Of a DNA stretch of 64,000 nucleotides, positions 5,055 to 60,713 are shown in pieces. Each line of letters opens with the position of its first letter. The stretch's first letter is position 1. The notes below the pieces were generated by a model. The model saw nothing but the letters and a program-made list of their open reading frames with translations. It searched no databases and had not been told where the DNA came from. The position numbers were made by a program, and so were the translations under genes. The stretch lies in the IMG/VR virus record IMGVR_UViG_3300042259_000159. One strand, written 5' to 3'. The DNA comes from a virus.

Positions 5055-6266
5055 TTAAAAGGGTATATTAGAGTCATACAGGGAGACAAAGTCTTTGTCT
5101 TTCAGGCATTCCAAACAAACAGAATCGTATTCCGAGATGATTGCGATTTTCTCATTCCTCTCATAGAACTTCCCGCACCAGTCGCAGGAGTGGTAAGGGT
5201 GATGCGGGTAGCTTATCTTATACTCAATCTTAGGGGCTTCTTCCTCCTTCTGATTGATGGGAATGATGGAACCCACAGTGAAATACGTCTTCTTGTCGAG
5301 CGTTTGCCCGATGAACAATATCTTTGCCCGAAGGGGGACGCCCACAGGAACATCCGAGTTGCCATATGCGAAGTGACGAGCTTCAATATCCTCTCCAATC
5401 ACCTCACCGAAGTAGTCGACATTCTTCCCATATGTGCTTTCCCTTTTGTGGAACTTCACAGTGGCATACTCATCTTCTCGATAGGTGCGAAGATTCCCCA
5501 CTGCTTTTCGTGTTGCCCTCTCCCAATTATTCCACCCTTGGTGGATGTACGTTGTCTTGACAGGAGGCGTGTACGAGCAAGGAGTGAGCTTCTTGGTAGT
5601 GAGTTTAAGGCCGTTGCTCAAGTTCCACGAGTAGAGAACATTTTCTTTCACTTCGCAAGCTTTCATGCAGGGTATTTTGTTTCTCCAACATGCCGCATGA
5701 ATGAAGAAAGGCTCAGAAGCCCAGAACACCACCTTCTTTTCTTTGTCAAGCATATAGTAGAGAGGCCGCTTATCGTTCCGCAGCATGTTGAGCGTGTCTT
5801 CGTTTTCGTCATACCAGACAAGAGCAGCTGCCCCGCAAAGATTCTGCCAAGTGTCTTCCACACCATGTATGGACATATGGTGGTAGATGTTGGAAGAATC
5901 AACATCGAATTTCTTGTAATCCGCCAGAAGATGTTGGGCTGTAAGTGTTCCGTTATGCACTCCTGTAATGTGCCCATGCTGAAACGGATGAGCGTTTTCC
6001 TCGATAATAGTTCCTTTCGTTGCTGCTCTATTATGCCCTATAAGGCATTTCAACACTTGTGAAAAGATAGGCTGTACTTTACCAATGGTGACAAAGTCAT
6101 AGGCTGCCAGAAGAGATTTTTCGATAGTGACTTTCTTCGTATGGCGATTTACTCCAGCGAGACCCACGGAATCAACTCCGCGTATTTCGTCAAAGATGAG
6201 CATATCCTTGACTGCCTTCTCCTCTTTCGTTGTAATCAGTCCAGCTGCTCCAATAATACCACACAT
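5055..6266 (-). CDS. class II (Ntn-type) glutamine amidotransferase domain protein
   Basis: Track ORF 403 aa. Starts MCGIIG, i.e. Cys immediately after Met as in Ntn amidotransferases. Confidence 0.7.
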   Translation of the reverse strand: MCGIIGAAGLITTKEEKAVKDMLIFDEIRGVDSVGLAGVNRHTKKVTIEKSLLAAYDFVTIGKVQPIFSQVLKCLIGHNRAATKGTIIEENAHPFQHGHITGVHNGTLTAQHLLADYKKFDVDSSNIYHHMSIHGVEDTWQNLCGAAALVWYDENEDTLNMLRNDKRPLYYMLDKEKKVVFWASEPFFIHAACWRNKIPCMKACEVKENVLYSWNLSNGLKLTTKKLTPCSYTPPVKTTYIHQGWNNWERATRKAVGNLRTYREDEYATVKFHKRESTYGKNVDYFGEVIGEDIEARHFAYGNSDVPVGVPLRAKILFIGQTLDKKTYFTVGSIIPINQKEEEAPKIEYKISYPHHPYHSCDWCGKFYERNEKIAIISEYDSVCLECLKDKDFVSLYDSNIPF

Positions 6267-7006: not shown

Positions 7007-7815
7007 CGAAATCTCCTCAGGTTGTCTATTGTGTTGACGACAATTTCATCAGTGCCGGGAATATCTTTGTCGTATTCCAGCATGAGAGTATTGCCATTCC
7101 GTGTCACTCTTTTCCCGCTCTCTTTGAGAGCAGATTCAATAAGGTCTATGACAAGAGGCCGATTGGTGTAACGGTTCAGAGTTTTTTCTACTCCTCTGCC
7201 CCAGTCACCCCCATTAAACGGGTCATCCAAGTGCCTTTTTTCCAACTGCTCCCCGTATATGAAGGCGGACGCAGACCTCACCGTAAGACCAGTATCGAAG
7301 AGGGAATGAGGTCCTCTTCTCGACGCAATATATTTCTCCCCACGATAGAAGTAGGCACTAAGCAACGCCACGGGTGGAGACACTTCAAACTTCTTCATAT
7401 ACTCCACCATCTTTTCTATACGGAAATCCTCATGGACGTCCCACGGAAGACGAGCAAGAGTAGCTGCCGTCAGCAAGATGTTTCTGGGAGCGTCCAGAGA
7501 AATGTACACCCCTCCTTTCTTCTTGTTTGTGTTGTTCTCATAATAGCCCTTGAAGCCGCTTTTCTTGAACAGCCAAGGCCAGTAGTGTTCTTTCAAGAAC
7601 TCACCTTCAGACCTAATACCTCCTGCCGGCCCGGGGACACAGCAGAGGTGAGTATATCCATTTTTGAGGGTGTGCGAATTCTTGAGCCATGCAAGGCACA
7701 CTTCGTTCGGAAAAGATTCACACTCTCTCGTTTTTTCGTTCACGAGAAGGTAGGGTTGAGACCTTACGTTATCATCCTCCTGACATTTCTTCACTTCCTT
7801 AAAGAAACTCCTCAT
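7003..7815 (-). CDS. hypothetical protein (last gene of amidoligase cluster)
   Basis: Track ORF 270 aa; stop overlaps the start of the class I amidotransferase gene. Confidence 0.5.
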   Translation of the reverse strand: MRSFFKEVKKCQEDDNVRSQPYLLVNEKTRECESFPNEVCLAWLKNSHTLKNGYTHLCCVPGPAGGIRSEGEFLKEHYWPWLFKKSGFKGYYENNTNKKKGGVYISLDAPRNILLTAATLARLPWDVHEDFRIEKMVEYMKKFEVSPPVALLSAYFYRGEKYIASRRGPHSLFDTGLTVRSASAFIYGEQLEKRHLDDPFNGGDWGRGVEKTLNRYTNRPLVIDLIESALKESGKRVTRNGNTLMLEYDKDIPGTDEIVVNTIDNLRRFR

Positions 7816-8077
7816 GTTTCTCTCCTTTCTTCTCTCTGTATAATATATATATATATATTATATAATAATATATATTATACAGAAGTTAATAGTTTAGTTA
7901 AGAGCAGGAAATCCTGCCCTCTCTAAAGTATTAACAGTAAGGGTCTTCGTCCTCTATCGACCAGTCAATCGGCTCCTCAGGCATAATCGTCACCATTTAT
8001 TTGCGAGTAATCTATTCCTTGTTATTGAAAGTTTCTTGTCACATTTTCCATTTTCCAACGTATAATATATTAAGAGA

Positions 8078-8479
8078 CTAGTTCTTGCGACACCAGATTC
8101 CGTCACAAGACGGAGGCTTATTCATCTGGTCAACGTGGAGAGACACACTCTCAATAGGGTATACAATCATGTTATCGTCCCCTTCTTCTTCCACATTGAG
8201 GTAGTAGGACGACTGTTTTTCAAAGTCAAAGTACCTCACTGATGTAACTTTCAGACAAACATGAGCGTTCTCTTTGTAGAAGAAGTCCCCAACATCAAGG
8301 TCGGTGAAAGCCCTCTTCAGGCTAGTATGTCGGCTAACAACTGCAACTCTGGTCATACTCTCTTCTCCTTCGTTTTCTTCCTTACCTTTCAGATAGGGAA
8401 TTTTCAATATTGCAAACACGCTGATACCCATAGCCGCTACCAGAAAGAAAGCTTCACTCCATAACATAGGAGGCTCCAT
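8078..8479 (-). CDS. membrane protein
   Basis: Track ORF 133 aa with hydrophobic N-terminal helix (LWSEAFFLVAAMGISVFAIL). Confidence 0.45.
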   Translation of the reverse strand: MEPPMLWSEAFFLVAAMGISVFAILKIPYLKGKEENEGEESMTRVAVVSRHTSLKRAFTDLDVGDFFYKENAHVCLKVTSVRYFDFEKQSSYYLNVEEEGDDNMIVYPIESVSLHVDQMNKPPSCDGIWCRKN

Positions 8480-8718: not shown

Positions 8719-8963
8719 CCTACGTATATAGAGCCGATGTGGAATTTCGTACCCTTAAGTTCAGGCTGTTTCCTTCCAACTTTCTTCAGAAATCTTCTGA
8801 AAGCACGGAGGGTACGACAGGGAGGCCCATGACTGGAGAAGCCTTTCTCTGTCGTACACTCTTCAAGCGGAAGCCAGATGCCATCACAATACCAGAGACC
8901 ATCGGACGCAGGTCTCCAGAAGTAACGTCGCAAACGGGCACCTCGCGAGCTAAAAAGTTTCAT
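8688..8963 (-). CDS. hypothetical protein
   Basis: Track ORF 91 aa. Confidence 0.35.
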   Translation of the reverse strand: MKLFSSRGARLRRYFWRPASDGLWYCDGIWLPLEECTTEKGFSSHGPPCRTLRAFRRFLKKVGRKQPELKGTKFHIGSIYVGCAYLKGVVQ

Positions 8964-9028
8964 CAGTCTCCCCTACCTTGTAAATGGCACTATTTTTCAA
9001 AACCCTGTCTAGGCTTTTTGCAGACATC

Positions 9029-53612: not shown

Positions 53613-54579
53613 AAAAATAAATGTCTGGTGAGAAGGTTAGAAGATCTTTTGTATGCACTGAGTATGAGATATCGTTCAAATCCTGTGCTTCGTGTAAAAT
53701 ATCAAACACAAGGAACCCGAAATCTACTGTTCCAGAACATTTCCTCTCTCCGAAAATTGTCTTTGGACCTTGAAGAGATGGACAAGACATCGCCATATAT
53801 TTTGTTGTACTGTTTGCAATGTGGTAGTGAACATGCCCACGGAGAATTACATCGCTTTTAGGCTGCATCTTTTTCTCTTCCCATAGGCGATTCCAGACAT
53901 ATTCTTTCGAAAGCTGTGTTGCCCTCCCGTGAGGGATTCCACTACTTCCAATGGCATGTCTGAGGTCAAAAAGAATCCCATTAATATCTACCCACAACCT
54001 ACCATCAAAAATAGCACCTATCTCTTTAGCTAGAACCTCTTCAAAATCCTCACCACCGGCATATGTATGGTAACCTGTCCCACCAACTAGAAAAATATTC
54101 TTACACGGGATTGAATCGAAGACTTGAACAGCTATATCTACTTGCTCGTTGAGGGATGAGGTTATCAGTCCATTTCCACCATCCTTAGATGCCTTGCCAT
54201 CAATTGCATCGCCTATGTGAAAAAGTGCATCGATATGGCCTAAGGATGAAACCCCTGTAGAGAAAAAGTCCCACATCTCTTCTTGCATAGAGGCAATCTT
54301 CTTTCTTTCCTCTTTGCTTCCTCCTTGAACGTTAAACATCCAGTCTGGAGGTGTCAAACCAACCTTACTTCCGCAGTGGGTATCCGAGATAACCAAAACC
54401 CTTGAGAAATCCCTTTTACACCTTTCCTCCTCTTTTTCCCACTTTGTGAGACCCTTATACTTATCCTTAAGAAAGTCGTGAACAGAAGATTTTGGAACCC
54501 CTGTTGCGGCAGAAATCTGCCTTATAGACTTCCCAGCCTTTTGCATTATAAGAGCAACCTCTTTCTGATATTCCTCCAT
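53605..54579 (-). CDS. calcineurin-like metallophosphoesterase with N-terminal HTH
   Basis: Track ORF 324 aa; metallophosphoesterase motifs DTHCG, GDAIDG, GHVH. Confidence 0.7.
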   Translation of the reverse strand: MEEYQKEVALIMQKAGKSIRQISAATGVPKSSVHDFLKDKYKGLTKWEKEEERCKRDFSRVLVISDTHCGSKVGLTPPDWMFNVQGGSKEERKKIASMQEEMWDFFSTGVSSLGHIDALFHIGDAIDGKASKDGGNGLITSSLNEQVDIAVQVFDSIPCKNIFLVGGTGYHTYAGGEDFEEVLAKEIGAIFDGRLWVDINGILFDLRHAIGSSGIPHGRATQLSKEYVWNRLWEEKKMQPKSDVILRGHVHYHIANSTTKYMAMSCPSLQGPKTIFGERKCSGTVDFGFLVFDILHEAQDLNDISYSVHTKDLLTFSPDIYFCR

Positions 54580-54616
54580 CTAACCTCCTTTACTCCTGTT
54601 TTTGGGAATAGAAATA

Positions 54617-54644
54617 TGGTACTGGCAGCGGGATTCGAACCCAC
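54617..54644 (-). pseudogene. orphan tRNA 3' fragment (T-arm + acceptor 3' strand + CCA)
   Basis: Minus-sense GTGGGTTCGAATCCCGC TGCCAGT A CCA with no matching 5' half nearby; its acceptor 3' strand pairs perfectly with the 5' acceptor strand of the aberrant tRNA at 55246-55323. Confidence 0.4.
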
Positions 54645-54658
54645 ACTGAAGGGGGGAT

Positions 54659-55108
54659 TTACTTATCTCTCTGGTAGTAGTGCTTTGATATTGCACTTCT
54701 TTCCATTTTTTGAATTTTTTTATTCTGAACGTCGGACCCATAACGTCCAGAACACGTTCTGGAACAAAAGGGCCCAGCTTTATTTTTAATGTTTCTCTGT
54801 GTCACCGTTGGCGTAAAAAGAGAATCGCAATATGGACACTTTACTTCTTCCACTCTCACCCTTACCACATCAAGCGAAGCATGGGAGGATCTACACAAAA
54901 CTTGTAAATTTTCAATTTTGTTGTTCAGTGGATTTCTATCAATGTGGTCAACTGTCTCAGATGGATCTAAAACTCTGCCCAGATGCACTTCCATTATAAT
55001 TCTGGAAGCCTGTTTAGCAGTTCTTTTAATTCCATCATATAAAACAATGACCAGTCTACCGTCTTTCCTTAAATATGGCCCATAAATTTTTTTACACTCT
55101 GGGTACAA
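54659..55108 (-). CDS. HNH homing endonuclease inserted in tRNA array
   Basis: HNH core HIDRNPLNNKIENLQVLCRSSH. Track ORF 54659-55192 would overlap tRNA-Leu, so the start is placed at TTG near 55108. Confidence 0.7.
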   Translation of the reverse strand: MYPECKKIYGPYLRKDGRLVIVLYDGIKRTAKQASRIIMEVHLGRVLDPSETVDHIDRNPLNNKIENLQVLCRSSHASLDVVRVRVEEVKCPYCDSLFTPTVTQRNIKNKAGPFCSRTCSGRYGSDVQNKKIQKMERSAISKHYYQRDK

Positions 55109-55122
55109 TTTTTGAATGTGTT

Positions 55123-55206
55123 TGGTAGGAGAAGAGAGATTCGAACTCTCAAGGAATAATCCGTCGAGGCTTAAACTCGATGTGTTTACCATTTCACCAT
55201 TCTCCC
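55123..55206 (-). tRNA. tRNA-Leu (anticodon TAA), type II, CCA encoded
   Basis: Hand-folded cloverleaf: acceptor GGGAGAA/TTCTCCT, anticodon stem TCGAG/CTCGA with loop TTTAAGC, long variable arm, T-arm GAGAG-TTCGAAT-CTCTC. Confidence 0.7.
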
Positions 55207-55245
55207 GTATTTTTTATCTACCATTCCGCCATTCCCGCATTTATT

Positions 55246-55323
55246 TGGTACCCACTGTGAGATTCGAACCCACACTAATCAGTTTCTAAGACTGATGCCT
55301 CTGCCAAGTTGGGCTATACCAGT
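55246..55323 (-). tRNA. aberrant tRNA-like gene (anticodon TAG, type I architecture, poorly paired acceptor stem)
   Basis: Good D-, anticodon (TCAGT-CTTAGAA-ACTGA) and T-arms, but 5' acceptor ACTGGTA mispairs with the adjacent 3' strand AGTGGGT. Confidence 0.4.
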
Positions 55324-55581
55324 ATTATGCTTATTATTTTATTTTGAAAGGCCATATGTATACACATATATATATATACATATATATATGTATAGAGCAA
55401 CCAAAATGGTTAAATAAAAAGGTGTTTTGTGGAGACACCAAACTCCTCCAGTTTTAGTGATCTGGAAACAATAAGCGGCGCAGGTGCTCTTTAAAACACG
55501 TGCTACCAAGCGTATAAATTGTCTAGGGGATTTCACCAAACACATTATGTTATTGGAGGGATCTTTCCCTAGACTCAGTAA

Positions 55582-55654
55582 AGCTCCTGACAGGACTTGA
55601 ACCCGCAACCGGCTGATTACAAATCAGCTGCTCTGCCAGTTGAGCTACAGGAGC
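55582..55654 (-). tRNA. tRNA-Thr (anticodon TGT), no encoded CCA
   Basis: Acceptor GCTCCTG/CAGGAGC, D-arm GCTC...GAGC, anticodon loop TTTGTAA, T-loop TTCAAGT. Confidence 0.7.
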
Positions 55655-55658
55655 AGAA

Positions 55659-55730
55659 CAGAGGGAGAAGGATTCGAACCTTCGAATGACGGGACCAAAA
55701 CCCGTTGCCTTACCGCTTGGCTACCCCTCT
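55659..55730 (-). tRNA. tRNA-Gln (anticodon TTG), no encoded CCA
   Basis: Acceptor AGAGGGG/TCCCTCT, anticodon stem ACGGG/CCCGT with loop TTTTGGT, T-arm GAAGG-TTCGAAT-CCTTC. Confidence 0.7.
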
Positions 55731-55738
55731 AAATTTTT

Positions 55739-55815
55739 TGGCTCCGGCGGCAGGATTTGAACCTACATTCGCAATGGTTAACAGCCATTTGCCTTACCAA
55801 TTCGGCGACACCGGA
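55739..55815 (-). tRNA. tRNA-Asn (anticodon GTT), CCA encoded
   Basis: Acceptor TCCGGTG/CGCCGGA, anticodon stem AATGG/CCATT with loop CTGTTAA, T-arm GTAGG-TTCAAAT-CCTGC. Confidence 0.7.
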
Positions 55816-55860
55816 ATGAACTTTTTATTTGTTATCAGCATTGTTTTGCTTTATTTTAAA

Positions 55861-55939
55861 TGGTCTCGGTGATTAGATTTGAACTAATGATTATTCCTGC
55901 TCCCAAAGCAGGTGCCATACCAAGCTAGGCGACACCGAG
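55861..55939 (-). tRNA. tRNA-Pro (anticodon TGG), CCA encoded
   Basis: Acceptor CTCGGTG/CACCGAG, anticodon stem CCTGC/GCAGG with loop TTTGGGA, T-arm ATTAG-TTCAAAT-CTAAT. Confidence 0.65.
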
Positions 55940-56416
55940 ATCAGGTGTGGTACCAAACTCCACTATGGGCAGAGGTTATAAGAAGGTCCGTACATGATAT
56001 AGACAGATATTCTTCCATAACAGCGGTACGGACGCTGTCTCATTTTTATATCTTTCAGTGTGCTATTACGCCAAAGGGAAATTAAGCCTTACCAGTTACG
56101 GGGTGCCCTTTTACTATCCACAAAGAATTTCAAATCGCGTGCATTCTAAGTATCGGAAAATTCTACAACCACTTAAAGTACACCTCGTTTAAGAGATAGC
56201 GACCTGTGCTTCGTCCCACTCTTTAAAGGATGGCTGCCTCAAAGCCCACCTCCTGAAAAATGCATGAAGGATTATCCCTCCTTCGCTAAATACAACCTAT
56301 CAATTTTAAGGGTTCTTGTCAAGAACATTTTAAGGTTTTTGAAATTTTTGTTGAACGCTGATTTGCTACGCGGGTACAGCGTTCGAAACCTCGATAGCAT
56401 CCTTGCCGTTGGCAAA

Positions 56417-56506
56417 GCTGTCAGGAGCCGCAGGAGGAGAATTGAACTCCTCTGGCATCAACACGCAGTCACCACAACTACATCTACCGTTACGGGTATG
56501 GCTCCC
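56417..56506 (-). other. tRNA-like element (T-arm and acceptor helix, non-canonical D/anticodon region)
   Basis: Minus-sense GGAGCCA...GAGGAG-TTCAATT-CTCCTC...CGGCTCC; lies just outside the right-end hairpin of the tnpB element. Confidence 0.3.
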
Positions 56507-56574
56507 CATCCTAGTCACCTGTTGATACCTTATAGGTTCAGCCCTACCAAGGGCACTGCGGCTTAAGTGGGTTG

Positions 56575-56860
56575 GTTGGTGCAGATTGTGAACGTACCCC
56601 CGCCTATAGAGGCGGAAGCTTCCTGCTTCAGCGAGAACAGCACCAGTAACTCCGAAGAGTTGTGGCGAATTACACTCTCTCCACAGGCGTAAATTCCCGT
56701 GCGACCCACGGTACTTTATGAGTTACGCTAGGCAGATATTCGCCCAGCTTCTTCTCTAATATTTATTGCAGCGTTCTTGTCACGGTTATGATGACTGCCA
56801 CACTTAAGGCAATCCCATTCCCGCACAGACAAGTCTTTGGTATCCTTGTTCTGGTAGCCA
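56575..56860 (-). ncRNA. candidate TnpB guide RNA (omega/reRNA) region at the element right end
   Basis: By analogy with IS200/IS605 TnpB systems the guide RNA overlaps the tnpB 3' end and runs to the right-end hairpin (56600-56615). Not folded or aligned. Confidence 0.3.
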
Positions 56861-57965
56861 CAGACATGGCATAGCTGACTGCTTGGATACCATTTGTCTA
56901 TCTTGATAAGTTGCTTACCCTGCCATGCAAGTTTGTATTTCAGCATACTTGTGAACATGCTCCAGCCGTTGTCGGATATGGATTTACCAAAGTTGAACTT
57001 GCCACCCTTCTTTCGCTTCGCCATGTCCTTTACGCTAATGTCCTCTATGCCAATCACATCATAGCGGTCTGCAAGATAACGAGCTTTCTTATGCAGGAAG
57101 TCGCGGCGTTGATTAGCAATTTTCTCATGGAGTACAGCCAAACGTAGTCTTTGTTTATTCCTATTACGGCTCCCTTTTTGTCTCTTGGAGAGTTTTCTTT
57201 GTGCCTTGATCAATCTCTTTTCGGCTTCCCGTAAGAAATTTGGATAATCGGCGTTGTCCTCATCGGAAGCAACATACATCCCGTGCATAGCAAAATCCAA
57301 TCCAAGAAAATTCTTCGGTATGATGGGAAGTATTTGGTTTTCATACTCCACCAAAATACTAATATAGTATTTTCCTGACGGTGTTTTACTTATGGTTACA
57401 GTCTTTATGGTGCTATTCTCCATCAATGGACGATGCAGACACAGCTTTACCCAACCTATTTTCGGCAGCTTGACTTTGTTTCCCTCGATTCTTACAGAGC
57501 CATGTTGGTTGTTCGTAGAATATGAAGCATGACCCGCTTTCTTCGACTTGAAGCGTGGCTTGCAAAAATGCTTCCTATTGCTCCAAAAGTTGTTATACGC
57601 CTTGTTCAGGTTTATTTGGGCATTGGCGAGAGCAAGGCTGTCAACCTCTTTCAGCCAAGGAAACTCTTTCTTGTACTGTGCAGGTGTGTTGTTCAGCCTC
57701 TCTCCTGTTTCCTTATAGTGATCAAGACGATCTCCAAGCATCTTGTTATAGATGAATCTGGCACTGCCGAAAGTCTTGGCAAACATAATCTTCTGTTCAA
57801 TTGTCGGGTAGAGTCTATATCGGTATGCCTTATTCACTATAATCACCTGCCTTGATTTTCTATGTATTTACGAATTGTCTCAAACGGAGCAATTATCTGG
57901 CTCAACTACTTACGTAAATTCGCTAGACACACCTTCATCCCCCACCTTAGAGGTGGAGGGCTTCT
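56590..57965 (-). mobile_element. IS200/IS605-family insertion element carrying tnpB only
   Basis: tnpB flanked by similar imperfect palindromes: cccgcctatagaggcgg (56600-56615) and ccaccttagaggtgg (57942-57956). No Y1 tnpA. Inserted between tandem tRNA-Leu genes and the rest of the tRNA array. Confidence 0.65.
56728..57846 (-). CDS. tnpB: TnpB (RuvC-like RNA-guided endonuclease, IS605 OrfB family)
   Basis: Track ORF 372 aa; N-terminal YRYRLYPT, RuvC-like region, C-terminal zinc finger CHVCGY...CLKCG. Confidence 0.85.
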   Translation of the reverse strand: MIIVNKAYRYRLYPTIEQKIMFAKTFGSARFIYNKMLGDRLDHYKETGERLNNTPAQYKKEFPWLKEVDSLALANAQINLNKAYNNFWSNRKHFCKPRFKSKKAGHASYSTNNQHGSVRIEGNKVKLPKIGWVKLCLHRPLMENSTIKTVTISKTPSGKYYISILVEYENQILPIIPKNFLGLDFAMHGMYVASDEDNADYPNFLREAEKRLIKAQRKLSKRQKGSRNRNKQRLRLAVLHEKIANQRRDFLHKKARYLADRYDVIGIEDISVKDMAKRKKGGKFNFGKSISDNGWSMFTSMLKYKLAWQGKQLIKIDKWYPSSQLCHVCGYQNKDTKDLSVREWDCLKCGSHHNRDKNAAINIREEAGRISA

Positions 57966-57987
57966 GGCGGGTTAGGTTAAATCCCTT

Positions 57988-58012
57988 GTGTCTACTAATT
58001 CCACCAATCGGG
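57988..58012 (-). pseudogene. truncated tRNA 5' fragment (acceptor + D-arm) adjacent to the tnpB element left end
   Basis: Minus-sense GCCCGATTGGTGGAATTAGTAGACAC duplicates the 5' 26 nt of tRNA-Leu(TAA) at 58023-58109, including the aaagatttt spacer, but has no anticodon or T-arm. Confidence 0.45.
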
Positions 58013-58022
58013 CTAAAATCTT

Positions 58023-58109
58023 TGGTGCCCAATGCAGGACTCGAACCTGCACGCCATTTCAGGCAGGAGGGCTTAAACCTCGTGTGTCTACCAATTCCAC
58101 CAATCGGGC
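58023..58109 (-). tRNA. tRNA-Leu (anticodon TAA), type II, CCA encoded
   Basis: Acceptor GCCCGAT/ATTGGGC, anticodon loop TTTAAGC, long variable arm, T-arm GCAGG-TTCGAGT-CCTGC. Confidence 0.65.
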
Positions 58110-58118
58110 TAAAATCTT

Positions 58119-58202
58119 TGGTGCCTCAGACAGGATTCGAACCTGCACGGATCTCTCCACTTGGTCCTAAGCCAAGCGTGTCTGCCATTCCACCACTGAG
58201 GC
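58119..58202 (-). tRNA. tRNA-Leu (anticodon TAG), type II, CCA encoded
   Basis: Acceptor GCCTCAG/CTGAGGC, anticodon stem CTTGG/CCAAG with loop CTTAGGA, long variable arm, T-arm GCAGG-TTCGAAT-CCTGT. Confidence 0.7.
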
Positions 58203-58229
58203 TGAAATTTTAATTAAAGTTTGACATAC

Positions 58230-58640
58230 TCCCCACGGATAAATCCGGGGGATTCTGGATTCAAACAGCAACGGCGGGTGCAAGCACCCTTCTGTCTGTC
58301 ATTGAGGCAGTCGCCTTAGAACCAGCCGCTGCACCGAACTCGCTACCGCTGGGCGCTCTGCAAGAACACACTCCCAGATATGTATGCCAATAGCAATTTT
58401 TGTCATGTTTCATGTTTACCTCCGCTCGCAGGTGAGCTATTCGTTATATGTCGTAAAATTCATGGCTCGTGTATTTGCACGGGATTACCCCATGCAAAAC
58501 GTGCAGGAAGGCAAGCACAGCCTGACGCACGGCCTCCCTTAATGCCTTTTTTGCTACGGCAAAATTCGCCATCATGTGCTTAAAATAGATCATCATATAA
58601 CCAGTCAATCAACCGGATTTGCTATGCTCTCCGGTTATTT
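58230..58640 (+). other. non-coding region with tmRNA-5'-like motif (candidate structured RNA)
   Basis: Plus-strand GGGGGATTCTGGATTCAAAC (about 58247-58266) resembles the conserved 5' end of tmRNA, but no 3' T-arm/CCA partner was found in the next 400 nt. Confidence 0.25.
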
Positions 58641-58646
58641 CGGTCG

Positions 58647-59057
58647 TTAGCCTTCCATCGCCAGCTTGATTGCCCGGCGAACTTTCCCAAAATCGTGAAT
58701 CGAAAACAGGCATCCGCCGAAATTATACCGGCAGACCATCTCCGCATCCAGCCAGCGCAACACCTCCAGCATTTCAGGGGCGGCTGCAATAAGTTTGGCG
58801 TTGGCCTCCATGATTGGCACGCGTCCTTGCACGCCACGGGCAGAGGTTGCACATACCGGGTTGCCGTTGCAATCCTCTACTATCAACCGGCCTTTTCGGT
58901 CCGGCACAACTCCGGCAGTAACCGACCACGGGCCGGGACTATGCACAGGATAATCTTCCCTGTTGTAGGCTGTTTTCCCATCCGTTATAATTGTCGGCGT
59001 TTCGCTATCTTTGCAAACCTTTCCCCGATATGTATTTCCGTCACCGTAGCTATTCAT
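58647..59057 (-). CDS. hypothetical protein
   Basis: Track ORF 136 aa. Confidence 0.45.
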   Translation of the reverse strand: MNSYGDGNTYRGKVCKDSETPTIITDGKTAYNREDYPVHSPGPWSVTAGVVPDRKGRLIVEDCNGNPVCATSARGVQGRVPIMEANAKLIAAAPEMLEVLRWLDAEMVCRYNFGGCLFSIHDFGKVRRAIKLAMEG

Positions 59058-59284
59058 TGGTGTTATCTCCTTCTTCGGCCATTATTCTTAAAAATTCTTC
59101 AAAGTTGTATGCGGCCTTATTCGTCATCTCTATACACCTCCACTTGCTCATGTGATTGTCGGAAACTTTCGGCAACTTTTTCGGCGACATCTTTTGTCAT
59201 TAGGCCAGTCCTATACCACTCTCCGGCTTGTTCGTTAATCCATCTCCAGTATTTCACTCGATAATTAACATTTTTTGGCATTGT

Positions 59285-59551
59285 CTATCTCCTCCGCAAG
59301 TTGCGCTCTCTGGTCAAGCCACCATTTTTTTCTGACACGTCTTTGTCTCTTTCAATCGTGTAGAGAAGGTTTTCGGATTTGTCTATCAATTCCTGTAATT
59401 GATGATATATTTTCCGGTATTCGTCGTGCGAAATATCCAAAAGTTCCCGCATTCCGTCTCTGGTATTCTTAAACAACAAGCAATCTGCATCACCACGAGA
59501 AAGGCCAAGGTTTGCTTCCATATAATTAAACGGGCAAACAGGCTTTTTCAT
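59285..59551 (-). CDS. hypothetical protein
   Basis: Track ORF 88 aa in a run of small co-directional minus-strand ORFs. Confidence 0.35.
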   Translation of the reverse strand: MKKPVCPFNYMEANLGLSRGDADCLLFKNTRDGMRELLDISHDEYRKIYHQLQELIDKSENLLYTIERDKDVSEKNGGLTRERNLRRR

Positions 59552-59808
59552 GTTGTCTCCTTTATTTCTTCAATAAGTGTTTCCAGGTCTGAACACTCCT
59601 GCTCAAGTGCCTTGTGCAGTGCTTTATTCTCATGAGCACCTTGCATTTCCGAGTACAGCCGCCCGAGCAACGATGCTTCCAAGTATGGCAAAACCCTTTT
59701 CAACAGTTCACCTCGCAACAAATTTTCAGTAACCTGCTTTTCTTGGTGGTTCTTCATCAGGCAAGAACCGCAAATAATATTCTCGCTGTGGTTACAGGAC
59801 GTTATCAT
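59548..59808 (-). CDS. hypothetical protein
   Basis: Track ORF 86 aa; start/stop overlap with neighbours. Confidence 0.35.
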   Translation of the reverse strand: MITSCNHSENIICGSCLMKNHQEKQVTENLLRGELLKRVLPYLEASLLGRLYSEMQGAHENKALHKALEQECSDLETLIEEIKETT

Positions 59809-60047
59809 ACAAACCCCTCAAAATAGCATAACGGCAGCCAACCCCGAATAAGGTGCGTGTCGTGACCATCTATCAAGAACCTATCTTCACAACATATCCA
59901 ATCATACTCGCCGTCGTCTTTCGCGTCGTTCTCCGGAGCAACATTAGAAAACCACGCACTACAAACTGTTCCGTCATGCAAAAACAACAATATCTGCTGA
60001 CCGTTTGTCGGTAGTGTTTCCGGGCCATTCAATCGTATTTGATTCAT
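59805..60047 (-). CDS. hypothetical protein
   Basis: Track ORF 80 aa. Confidence 0.35.
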   Translation of the reverse strand: MNQIRLNGPETLPTNGQQILLFLHDGTVCSAWFSNVAPENDAKDDGEYDWICCEDRFLIDGHDTHLIRGWLPLCYFEGFV

Positions 60048-60257
60048 TTACAGTCCTCCAAATGTATTTTCCATTGCCGTAAACCCGCAGCCTTTTCCAT
60101 CTGCAAGCGTTTCAACTGCGGCATTAAAACCACGGACGAACGCCGGTGGCGGGTCCGGTATGTCGTCATCGTCAGTACCCCAATACTTACGCCAGCTATC
60201 CATCATCGTTTTGTTAATCATTTCACTCATCTTCAAAGCCCTCCACGTGCAAATCAT
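60048..60257 (-). CDS. hypothetical protein
   Basis: Track ORF 69 aa. Confidence 0.3.
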   Translation of the reverse strand: MICTWRALKMSEMINKTMMDSWRKYWGTDDDDIPDPPPAFVRGFNAAVETLADGKGCGFTAMENTFGGL

Positions 60258-60713
60258 TGCTCAGATCCAAGTCAACAAACACCTGCGCCGGTTCCTCTTC
60301 CTCGCCGTAATTACCCGATTGCCTGACGGGGCCGGTGAGTATTCTGATGTCTCTTATCATGCATAACAACTGTGATCCGTCGAAAGAGAGATTAAACAGC
60401 TGAGACAGTTATGCAGGCGTTAACGTTCTTATTATATAGCACAGGAGAAACACTTTGTCAAGCTTTTTATAAAACTATTTTAAAAAAGAACTGTTTCGCT
60501 GTACATAATTCTGACTTAAGGCCTAGAACAAATAGTAAAACCGGAGGAGGAGCTTCTTTTCATCTAGGATGTGACTTCCATGTCTGATAGGCTTTCCGGC
60601 GTGTTAAGAAGAATATAACAAACAACACAGGCCTTGTCAAGTGTTTTCTTACATCCCTTATGAGACTCCTTATTGTTTATATCACAACACCCTGCTGTCA
60701 TTGCTTCTTCCTC

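Follow-up and report, generated by a model that had tools for sequence, protein, structure and literature searches.

A tnpA-deleted IS605-type element in a phage tRNA array: probable insertion into a tRNA-Leu(UAA) anticodon loop and later exchange of its guide

A stretch of 64,000 nucleotides (nt) from the viral record IMGVR_UViG_3300042259_000159 of IMG/VR, called the window below, carries within its tRNA array a 1389-bp insertion sequence (IS) of the IS200/IS605 family, at positions 57976..56588 of the minus strand. Very probably, this is a non-autonomous, tnpA-deleted IS605-type copy that inserted into the anticodon loop of a tRNA-Leu(UAA) gene and whose guide was later swapped by a deletion of the flanking DNA flush with the last base of the element. 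In order, the element is made up of a hairpin-bearing left end, what is left of tnpA, the intact tnpB gene, a conserved structured region of the omega-RNA type and a right end whose hairpin matches that of the left. Pfam, PHROG, Rfam, ARAGORN, BLAST and covariation tests were applied to the window and its relatives. An earlier reading, made from the letters alone (the sequence-only reading), had proposed, at 56575-58022, an IS200/IS605-type element that has tnpB only and is bounded by a hairpin at either end; the element and its hairpins are borne out by the present analysis, while that extent is replaced by the one given above.

As that reading had advised, comparison with related genomes sets the exact ends: they are defined by a sister phage (IMGVR_UViG_3300036466_000329, hereafter L002) and by about 43 other contexts. 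The relatives of the element comprise 25 viral and 66 bacterial loci. Nine other viral contigs contain TnpB relatives with 84-97% identity, and the bacterial loci belong nearly all to Negativicutes, with Phascolarctobacterium first (94-96%), followed by Mitsuokella, Megasphaera, Selenomonas and others; Megasphaera hexanoica has three copies of the family. Members of the family are frequent in Negativicutes of the gut and rumen, the nearest copies being those of Phascolarctobacterium, and the presence of the family in many unrelated genomic contexts, in Negativicutes, other genomes and viral contigs, is that of a mobile element. The commonest length within the family is 1795 bp, tnpA included, and shorter tnpA-less derivatives are frequent. 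With respect to its identity, the window element is an ordinary tnpB element of the IS605 family, a new copy of a family that is already known.

About 43 independent copies, from Negativicutes genomes and other viral contigs, have common ends. The left end (57847..57976, minus strand) begins CCTAACCCGCCAGAAG, and the similarity among copies from unrelated contexts starts exactly there, with CCTAA(T/C)CCGCCAGAAG straight after the pentanucleotide TTTAA, which adjoins the element without a gap in 47 of the 51 left-end junctions recovered (about 43 distinct flanks). The right-end terminus is GTTCAC (56588..56593, minus strand), 56588 being the final base of the element; the 3' end reads GGTACGTTCAC, and similarity stops exactly after GTTCAC in 10 viral and about 40 bacterial copies. 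The junctions TTTAA/CCTAATCCGCCAGAAG and GTACGTTCAC/ (a slash marks the border of the element) are those that recur in the 43 or so contexts. In the window, the TTTAA that serves as target and as transposon-adjacent motif (TAM) lies at 57977..57981 on the minus strand, where it represents nucleotides U32-A36 in the anticodon loop of a tRNA-Leu(UAA) copy that is broken; TTTAA is a reported IS605 target (PMC13565253).

Both of the palindromes on which the sequence-only reading was founded are present where it had placed them. The left-end subterminal hairpin, CCACC-TCTAA-GGTGG (57942..57956, minus strand; palindrome CCACCTTAGAGGTGG), has on its 5' side the same CAGAAGC motif as the right end. 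The right-end subterminal hairpin, CCGCC-TCTATA-GGCGG (56600..56615, minus strand; palindrome CCGCCTATAGAGGCGG), is also the last helix (helix 7) of the RNA scaffold discussed below. The motif common to the two ends can be written CAG(G)AAGC..CC(A/G)CCTCTA(T)AGG(T/C)GGGGG. The foot of the left-end hairpin is about 20 nt from the cleavage site and the right-end spacing is 12 nt, values that resemble the 19 nt and 10 nt between hairpin and cleavage site in IS608. IS605-type elements typically have, as here, an imperfect subterminal palindrome near each end, both on one strand, and lack terminal inverted repeats; insertion 3' of a fixed tetra- or pentanucleotide without target-site duplication is likewise typical of them and is what the left-end junctions and the flanks in L002 display. 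The hairpins are not a matter of chance, since they travel with tnpB, at fixed distances from it, in about 43 distinct and unrelated contexts; this same co-occurrence excludes terminator hairpins independent of tnpB.

The phage L002 provides an occupied site to set against an empty one. It is collinear with the window, with 90-99% identity around the tRNA array, and it carries the same tnpA-deleted element exactly in the anticodon loop of tRNA-Leu(UAA), both halves of the tRNA being present. The order in L002 is tRNA-Leu(tag), a 9-nt spacer, GCCCGATTGG...GAGGTTTAA, the IS and then GCCCTCCTGCCTGAAATGGCGTGCAGGTTCGAGTCCTGCATTGGGCACCA, with the flanks of the IS at 5830-5875 and 7260-7309. Joined together, these flanks equal the intact tRNA-Leu(UAA) gene of the window (58109..58023, minus strand; 48 bits), with no base duplicated or missing (BLAST identity 96-99%); this gene is the empty site of the L002 insertion, whose point lies between the third anticodon base and position 37. 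The earlier suggestion of an insertion or recombination in a tRNA gene is thus substantiated. The guide of a TnpB omega-RNA is the DNA directly 3' of the right end. In L002 this native guide is GCCCTCCTGCCTGAAA..., which equals the 3' half of the tRNA gene, and its target, preceded by TTTAA, is found in the intact gene of the window at 58077..58053. The guide of the sister copy therefore corresponds to the TAM-adjacent empty site, as it should for a TnpB. The search for IS-free relatives yielded little: exact searches with the intact anticodon-loop sequence, with a piece of the tRNA-like RNA described below and with a neighboring 324-amino-acid (aa) protein gave only the contig of the window and L002, a metagenome scan with a 32-mer across the tRNA-Leu(tag)/(taa) junction had no match, and megablast of the region against the GenBank phages found no relatives, its sole match being one of 50 nt to an rRNA-like RNA (see below).

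The window element has no tnpA open reading frame (ORF), as had been noticed at the outset, though the C-terminal 15 codons of this gene persist together with the stop codon (57843..57890, minus strand; translation APFETIRKYIENQGR and stop). Full copies of the element, such as L006 and L033, keep the whole 131-aa HUH/Y1 transposase, with its C-terminus ..GGAPIETIRKYIEHQGR; in L006, tnpA is situated upstream of tnpB at 5604-5999 and contains the motifs HDQDHVHIMF and SRSYCLLTTGG. The 406-bp deletion that removed the gene lies between two copies of TGCTCC, and L002 has the identical junction. Without the Y1 (HUH) TnpA of an IS605-type element, the window copy is a non-autonomous derivative.

The tnpB gene (56728..57846, minus strand) is an intact ORF of 372 aa with the N-terminus ..NKAYRYRLYPT. 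Its product matches the Pfam families HTH_OrfB_IS605 (PF12323), OrfB_IS605 (PF01385) and Cas12f1-like_TNB (PF07282), all three above their curated cut-offs (E = 5e-19 to 8e-26), as well as the PHROG 506 transposase (E = 2.5e-119). It aligns end to end with ISDra2 TnpB (PDB 8H1J, 8EXA; E = 2e-79). The RuvC triad D184, E269 and D357 is present and aligns with the catalytic columns of ISDra2, and the zinc ribbon C326xxC329...C346xxC349 is kept. Pfam and the ISDra2 alignment thus agree with the initial description of a 372-aa TnpB having the YRYRLYPT motif, a RuvC-like domain and a C-terminal zinc finger. A nuclease-dead repressor of the TldR type was also considered, and is ruled out by the presence of the triad and the zinc ribbon and by the two intact IS ends. 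An exact look-up of the 372-aa protein had no match; a 369-aa version of it matched the contig L032, to which we return below. Between the tnpB genes of the window and L002, the ratio of non-synonymous to synonymous substitution rates (dN/dS) is 0.66 (5 synonymous and 13 non-synonymous differences), whereas between the window and bacterial copies it is about 0.2, a value of purifying selection. Compared with 35 relatives, the window TnpB has seven private replacements at invariant or nearly invariant columns (Y43H, G95C, V236L, S285N, E303K, P347L and R368G), P347L being inside the zinc ribbon, and the TnpB of L002 has three at such columns (Y13N, in the YRYRLYPT motif, K283N and K348G). This pattern of substitution points to a window tnpB that has probably been under relaxed constraint since its entry into the phage, drifting while still intact.

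Downstream, the scaffold region of the omega-RNA (also termed reRNA, right-end element RNA) covers the stretch between the stop codon of tnpB and the right end (56588..56748, minus strand), and its 5' end may be situated deeper inside tnpB. The region is conserved and can be recognized even in TnpB relatives of only about 50% identity. A seven-helix structure, written manually with RAGATH-18 as a guide, was tested on 54 sequences: 88.6% of the cells are paired, compared with 40-48% in controls with slid partners, and 24 of the 40 pairs vary on both sides, the observed values being reached by none of 500 shuffles. A minimum-free-energy fold of the single sequence, pairing GCCUGUGGAGA with the right-end hairpin, was dropped because it conflicts with the covarying CCUGU/GCAGG helix. 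The covariance-model search that had been recommended for TnpB guide-RNA scaffolds was only partly successful, giving a RAGATH-18 match at 56687..56620 with 27 bits, below the gathering score of 44.9. RNAs derived from RAGATH-18 are published TnpB guide-RNA cores or guides, and the model was described for IS607-type TnpBs (PMC11061315). In the alignment, the four substitutions of the scaffold region that are specific to the window leave every helix unbroken. Judged by sequence comparison, then, a conserved structured RNA of the kind expected for an omega-RNA probably extends across the 3' end of tnpB and the right end. With respect to the candidate guide RNA that had been placed at 56575-56860, the conserved covarying structure and the weak RAGATH-18 match speak in its favor, but the guide itself is outside the element, at 56587 to about 56568.

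It is at this point that the window differs from its sister. The 20 nt 3' of the right end (56568..56587, minus strand), hence the present guide, read AATCTGCACCAACCAACCCA, and this is not a TAM-adjacent empty site of the element. There is no further occurrence of the guide in the window within 3 mismatches, and a scan of the window, IMG/VR and the JGI metagenome contigs, but not of host genomes, yielded no target of it next to a TTTAA. In IMG/VR and the JGI metagenome contigs, the exact 19-mer of the guide occurs in the two sister phages and in a few chance matches from unrelated contigs, preceded by TCCTT, TCCCG or TTGAC. Reading off the guide past the right end and searching for its targets, as had been proposed, consequently gave a negative result, and the idea that TnpB aims at its own unoccupied site does not hold for the window copy, whose flank has been replaced.

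How the flank was replaced can be read from the alignment with L002. The right end in the window is followed by AATCTGCACCAACCAACCCACTTAA..., and the counterpart of this sequence in L002 begins at 7630, 320 bp past the end of the tRNA (7309). The window therefore lacks the 3' part of the tRNA plus 320 bp, in a deletion whose border coincides with the final base of the element. The right flank in the window begins AATCTGCACC, while in L002 the AATCTG is preceded by CTCAA and not TTTAA, and so is not a canonical insertion site in the sister phage. Microhomology slippage was rejected as the cause of the flush deletion, as it would be expected to give ..GTTCTCAAAATCTG or ..GTTCAAAATCTG versus the observed ..GTTCACAATCTG, and a promoter scan of the 320 bp of L002 that are deleted in the window found none. 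Through the loss of the flank, the leader of a tRNA-like RNA further downstream, AATCTGCACCAACCAACCCA, took the place of the guide, and, with its guide replaced and no tnpA, the window copy neither aims at its own empty site nor transposes alone.

This tRNA-like cloverleaf is just 3' of the TnpB guide, at 56426-56563 (minus strand) in the window and at 7654-7791 in L002. Its acceptor stem is of 8 bp (AGCCGCAG/CUGCGGCU), its D arm is GCCCU-UGGU-AGGGC and its T arm is GAGGAG-UUCAAUU-CUCCUC; a 76-nt branched insert replaces the anticodon arm, and the 3' end is UCC, not CCA. The RNA is 100% identical in the two sister phages over about 230 nt, and its flanks differ by 3-5%. ARAGORN (including its intron and transfer-messenger RNA modes), Rfam and the GenBank phages gave nothing credible for it.

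The left flank has also been rearranged. Adjoining the element is the diverged 5' part of a second tRNA-Leu(UAA) (57982..58013, or to 57977 with the TTTAA; minus strand), comprising the acceptor, the D arm and the anticodon stem-loop up to the anticodon, with 4 substitutions in 37 nt (58013..57977) relative to the intact gene. Next comes a duplicated 9-nt spacer (58014..58022, minus strand; repeat D2/D4) and, upstream of the broken fragment, the complete tRNA-Leu(UAA), so that the window has one 96-nt unit of tRNA and spacer more than L002. The truncated tRNA-Leu duplicate that had been noted at 57988-58012 is therefore present, although its real span is 58013..57977 plus the spacer 58022..58014. 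An independent Logan assembly, the contig L032, is 100% identical to the window over 58026..55685, including the right-end and the fragment/left-end junctions.

In view of these comparisons, a plausible history would begin with an ancestor phage that acquired the element by single-strand "peel and paste" insertion 3' of a TTTAA, the one used being in the anticodon loop of the phage's tRNA-Leu(UAA) gene; this state would have been retained in L002. There, with the 3' half of the tRNA as guide, TnpB would cut uninterrupted tRNA-Leu(UAA) alleles, favoring homing or retention of the element. Later, in the lineage of the window, an intact tRNA-Leu(UAA) and a spacer would have been gained upstream, most simply by unequal recombination, for which the neighboring tRNA-Leu(tag) and tRNA-Leu(taa) offer similar T-arm/acceptor ends and whose product would be exactly this arrangement, and, separately, the 3' part of the tRNA would have been lost along with the 320 bp. 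This flush deletion was possibly a one-ended TnpA reaction onto a degenerate target, with the TnpA coming from host copies, which is a conjecture. There are several points that weigh against the reading of a non-autonomous copy with a swapped guide as a whole. The lineage is known from two genomes only, so that neither the arrangement before the IS arrived nor the succession of the later steps is observed. The junction of the intact tRNA with the duplicated spacer rests on the single IMG/VR assembly, as L032 starts inside the repeat. The involvement of TnpA in the deletion is, as just said, conjectural. The signal of relaxed constraint rests on 18 substitutions only; moreover, with an intact ORF and no scaffold helix broken by the changes in the window, the TnpB-RNA complex may remain active. 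Finally, there is the missing target of the present guide, in a search that did not extend to host genomes.

This last pair of points leads to the possibility of an active and maintained RNA-guided nuclease, directed against competitors or used for homing, in which the exchange of the guide would be adaptive and not decay. The intact ORF with its complete triad and zinc ribbon and the conserved scaffold would fit such a role, and so would the match of the sister copy's guide to a phage tRNA gene beside a TAM and the loss, through the swap, of a guide that would have directed cleavage to the intact tRNA-Leu at a distance of 60 nt. However, the dN/dS of 0.66 between the phage copies, against about 0.2 in the family, the replacements at invariant positions (P347L in the zinc ribbon, Y13N in L002), the lack of a TAM-flanked target for the new guide in the sequences scanned and the CTCAA that precedes the matching sequence in L002 all argue otherwise, and we consider this possibility rather unlikely. 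A more specific version, which seems to us doubtful indeed, is that the guide swap served to avoid self-targeting: with an intact tRNA-Leu(UAA) restored beside the element, the original guide would cut the phage's own genome at 58077..58053; the flush deletion, maybe by host-supplied TnpA acting at the degenerate site CTCAA, would have removed that guide and joined the omega-RNA to the leader of the conserved tRNA-like RNA, and processing of the latter by RNase P would then set a guide of about 24-25 nt. If true, this would be a case of a phage keeping and re-aiming a TnpB nuclease.

The remaining alternatives concern the way in which the arrangement arose. Either an independent canonical insertion upstream of the tRNA-like RNA or a recombination between two IS copies could account for a right-end junction with the single-base precision of a transposase product, and the host genomes do hold many full copies that could supply TnpA. 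Nevertheless, the left flank is the same position of tRNA-Leu(UAA) as in L002 and the same unique junction of the tnpA deletion is found in both copies, in favor of a single ancestral insertion; L002 has CTCAA and not TTTAA at the would-be target, and what ought to precede a canonical insertion there, the region of L002 designated X, is missing from the window. Both scenarios are therefore very unlikely. It might also be supposed that the hairpins are ordinary terminators or palindromes of the tRNA array, or that the whole arrangement is an assembly chimera, the region being repeat-rich and the independent contig L032 ending inside a repeat. Yet the hairpins accompany tnpB at fixed distances in all those unrelated contexts, L032 reproduces the right-end and fragment/left-end junctions at 100%, the exact repeat is only 31 nt long and k-mers joining GGGCACCA to AAGATTTTA would need real reads, so that an artifact of this kind is highly improbable. 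Lastly, a tRNA anticodon loop is a classic site of group I introns, and an IStron, in which such an intron is joined to a TnpB element and the whole would splice from the tRNA transcript, might come to mind, as IStrons carry tnpB (PMC13011429). But Rfam gives no group I intron match at E <= 1 in 54500-59000, the distance from the left end to tnpB is only 130 nt, 48 of them tnpA remnant, which leaves no room for an intron, and the downstream exon is absent in the window; an IStron is scarcely credible here.

Among the known systems, the tnpA-deleted element is like the IS200/IS605 elements IS605, ISDra2 and IS608 in having subterminal hairpins at both ends and a strand-specific insertion 3' of a pentanucleotide without duplication, and unlike them in that the window copy has lost tnpA, and so moves only in trans, and has had its right flank replaced. 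It also resembles the TnpB-omega RNA nucleases (the TnpBs of ISDra2 and ISAam1) in its end-to-end alignment, its RuvC D-E-D residues, its zinc ribbon and its 3' structured RNA, and the guide in L002 is the same as the empty-site sequence beside the TAM, an arrangement that serves homing or retention; for some TnpBs, TTTAA is a reported TAM. The differences from these nucleases are that the guide of the window copy does not come from its own insertion target, that the RAGATH-18 match is sub-threshold and that the protein is known here from its sequence. A third parallel is with homing endonuclease cassettes such as T4 SegB, likewise a selfish nuclease within a phage tRNA cluster with a tRNA gene of related phages as target. 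According to PMC13565253, which cites its reference 35, SegB is encoded in a phage tRNA cluster and cuts a tRNA gene of related phages. The array of the window has, in addition, an ORF for an HNH endonuclease. In contrast to these cassettes, recognition in the present case would be guided by an RNA derived from flanking DNA, and the element is a bacterial IS and not a free-standing phage gene.

The window belongs to a viral contig of 91.6 kb in IMG/VR (IMGVR_UViG_3300042267_000152). Among its products are a primase/helicase, a family A DNA polymerase, NrdD, a DNA ligase and a CCA-adding enzyme, and its minus-strand tRNA array runs from about 54600 to 58200; no GenBank phage is similar to it at the DNA level. 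The locus also gives a probable pointer to the host of the phage, Phascolarctobacterium or a related Negativicute. Besides the tnpB element, the array contains what appears to be a second mobile-element event at 54605-55314, where L002 has a single tRNA (8890-8968). Its parts are a chimeric 69-nt tRNA-like gene (55314..55246), a different tRNA-Leu(taa) (55206..55123), the HNH ORF (55192..54659) and a duplicated T-arm/acceptor end (54647..54614), and the whole has the look of a homing-endonuclease cassette that entered a tRNA gene. Between two tRNA genes, at 55353-55394, there is a near-perfect palindrome composed of A and T only (ATATGTATACACATATATATATACATATATATATGTATA), for which the only Rfam matches were spurious ones to microRNAs. 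Two segments of the window are missing in the otherwise collinear L002: about 2 kb with small ORFs upstream of tRNA-Leu(tag) (approximately 58220-60300), and a 330-bp cassette at 55952-56281, in place of which L002 has a 93-aa ORF (7961-8240). The tRNA region thus appears to be a hotspot of cassette exchange.

The 330-bp cassette holds the rRNA-like RNA mentioned above, an unannotated RNA of about 190-380 nt (56056-56254 of the window, minus strand) with conserved blocks GGAAGGTGGGCTTAGAAGCAGCCATCCTTTAAAGAGTGGGAC on the 5' side and TCCCTTTGGCGTAATAGCACAC on the 3' side. Together, these blocks resemble the L11-binding GTPase-associated center of 23S rRNA (Rfam large-subunit rRNA, positions ~1094-1147; E = 2e-5), with an inserted variable arm of 90-286 nt and a closing helix that covaries in every sequence (8 of 9 pairs). 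Further examples are in contigs L103 (1485-1687), L104 (1487-1784), L105 (1485-1688), L106 (11551-11734), L107 (11746-12125) and L109 (9513-9817). The RNA lies in or near tRNA arrays, on the strand of the tRNAs, in the window phage, the Pseudomonas phages pf16 and UNO-G1W1, the Aeromonas phage 4_4572 and four further IMG/VR contigs, and there are BLAST matches in the records of other Pseudomonas, Xanthomonas, Paenibacillus and Staphylococcus phages. No Rfam family covers it and no paper on it was found in the literature searched. It is perhaps a mimic or decoy, encoded by the phage, of the base of the ribosomal stalk, and it looks more novel than the TnpB element.

The locus does not change the understanding of elements of this type. 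What it offers is a pair of sister phages in which occupied and empty alleles fix the TAM (TTTAA), the ends and the native guide of a TnpB element without experiment. The anticodon loop of tRNA-Leu(UAA) is, by its sequence, a ready-made TAM, and the comparison of the two phages illustrates how a deletion in the flank of such an element silently re-programs the guide of its TnpB.

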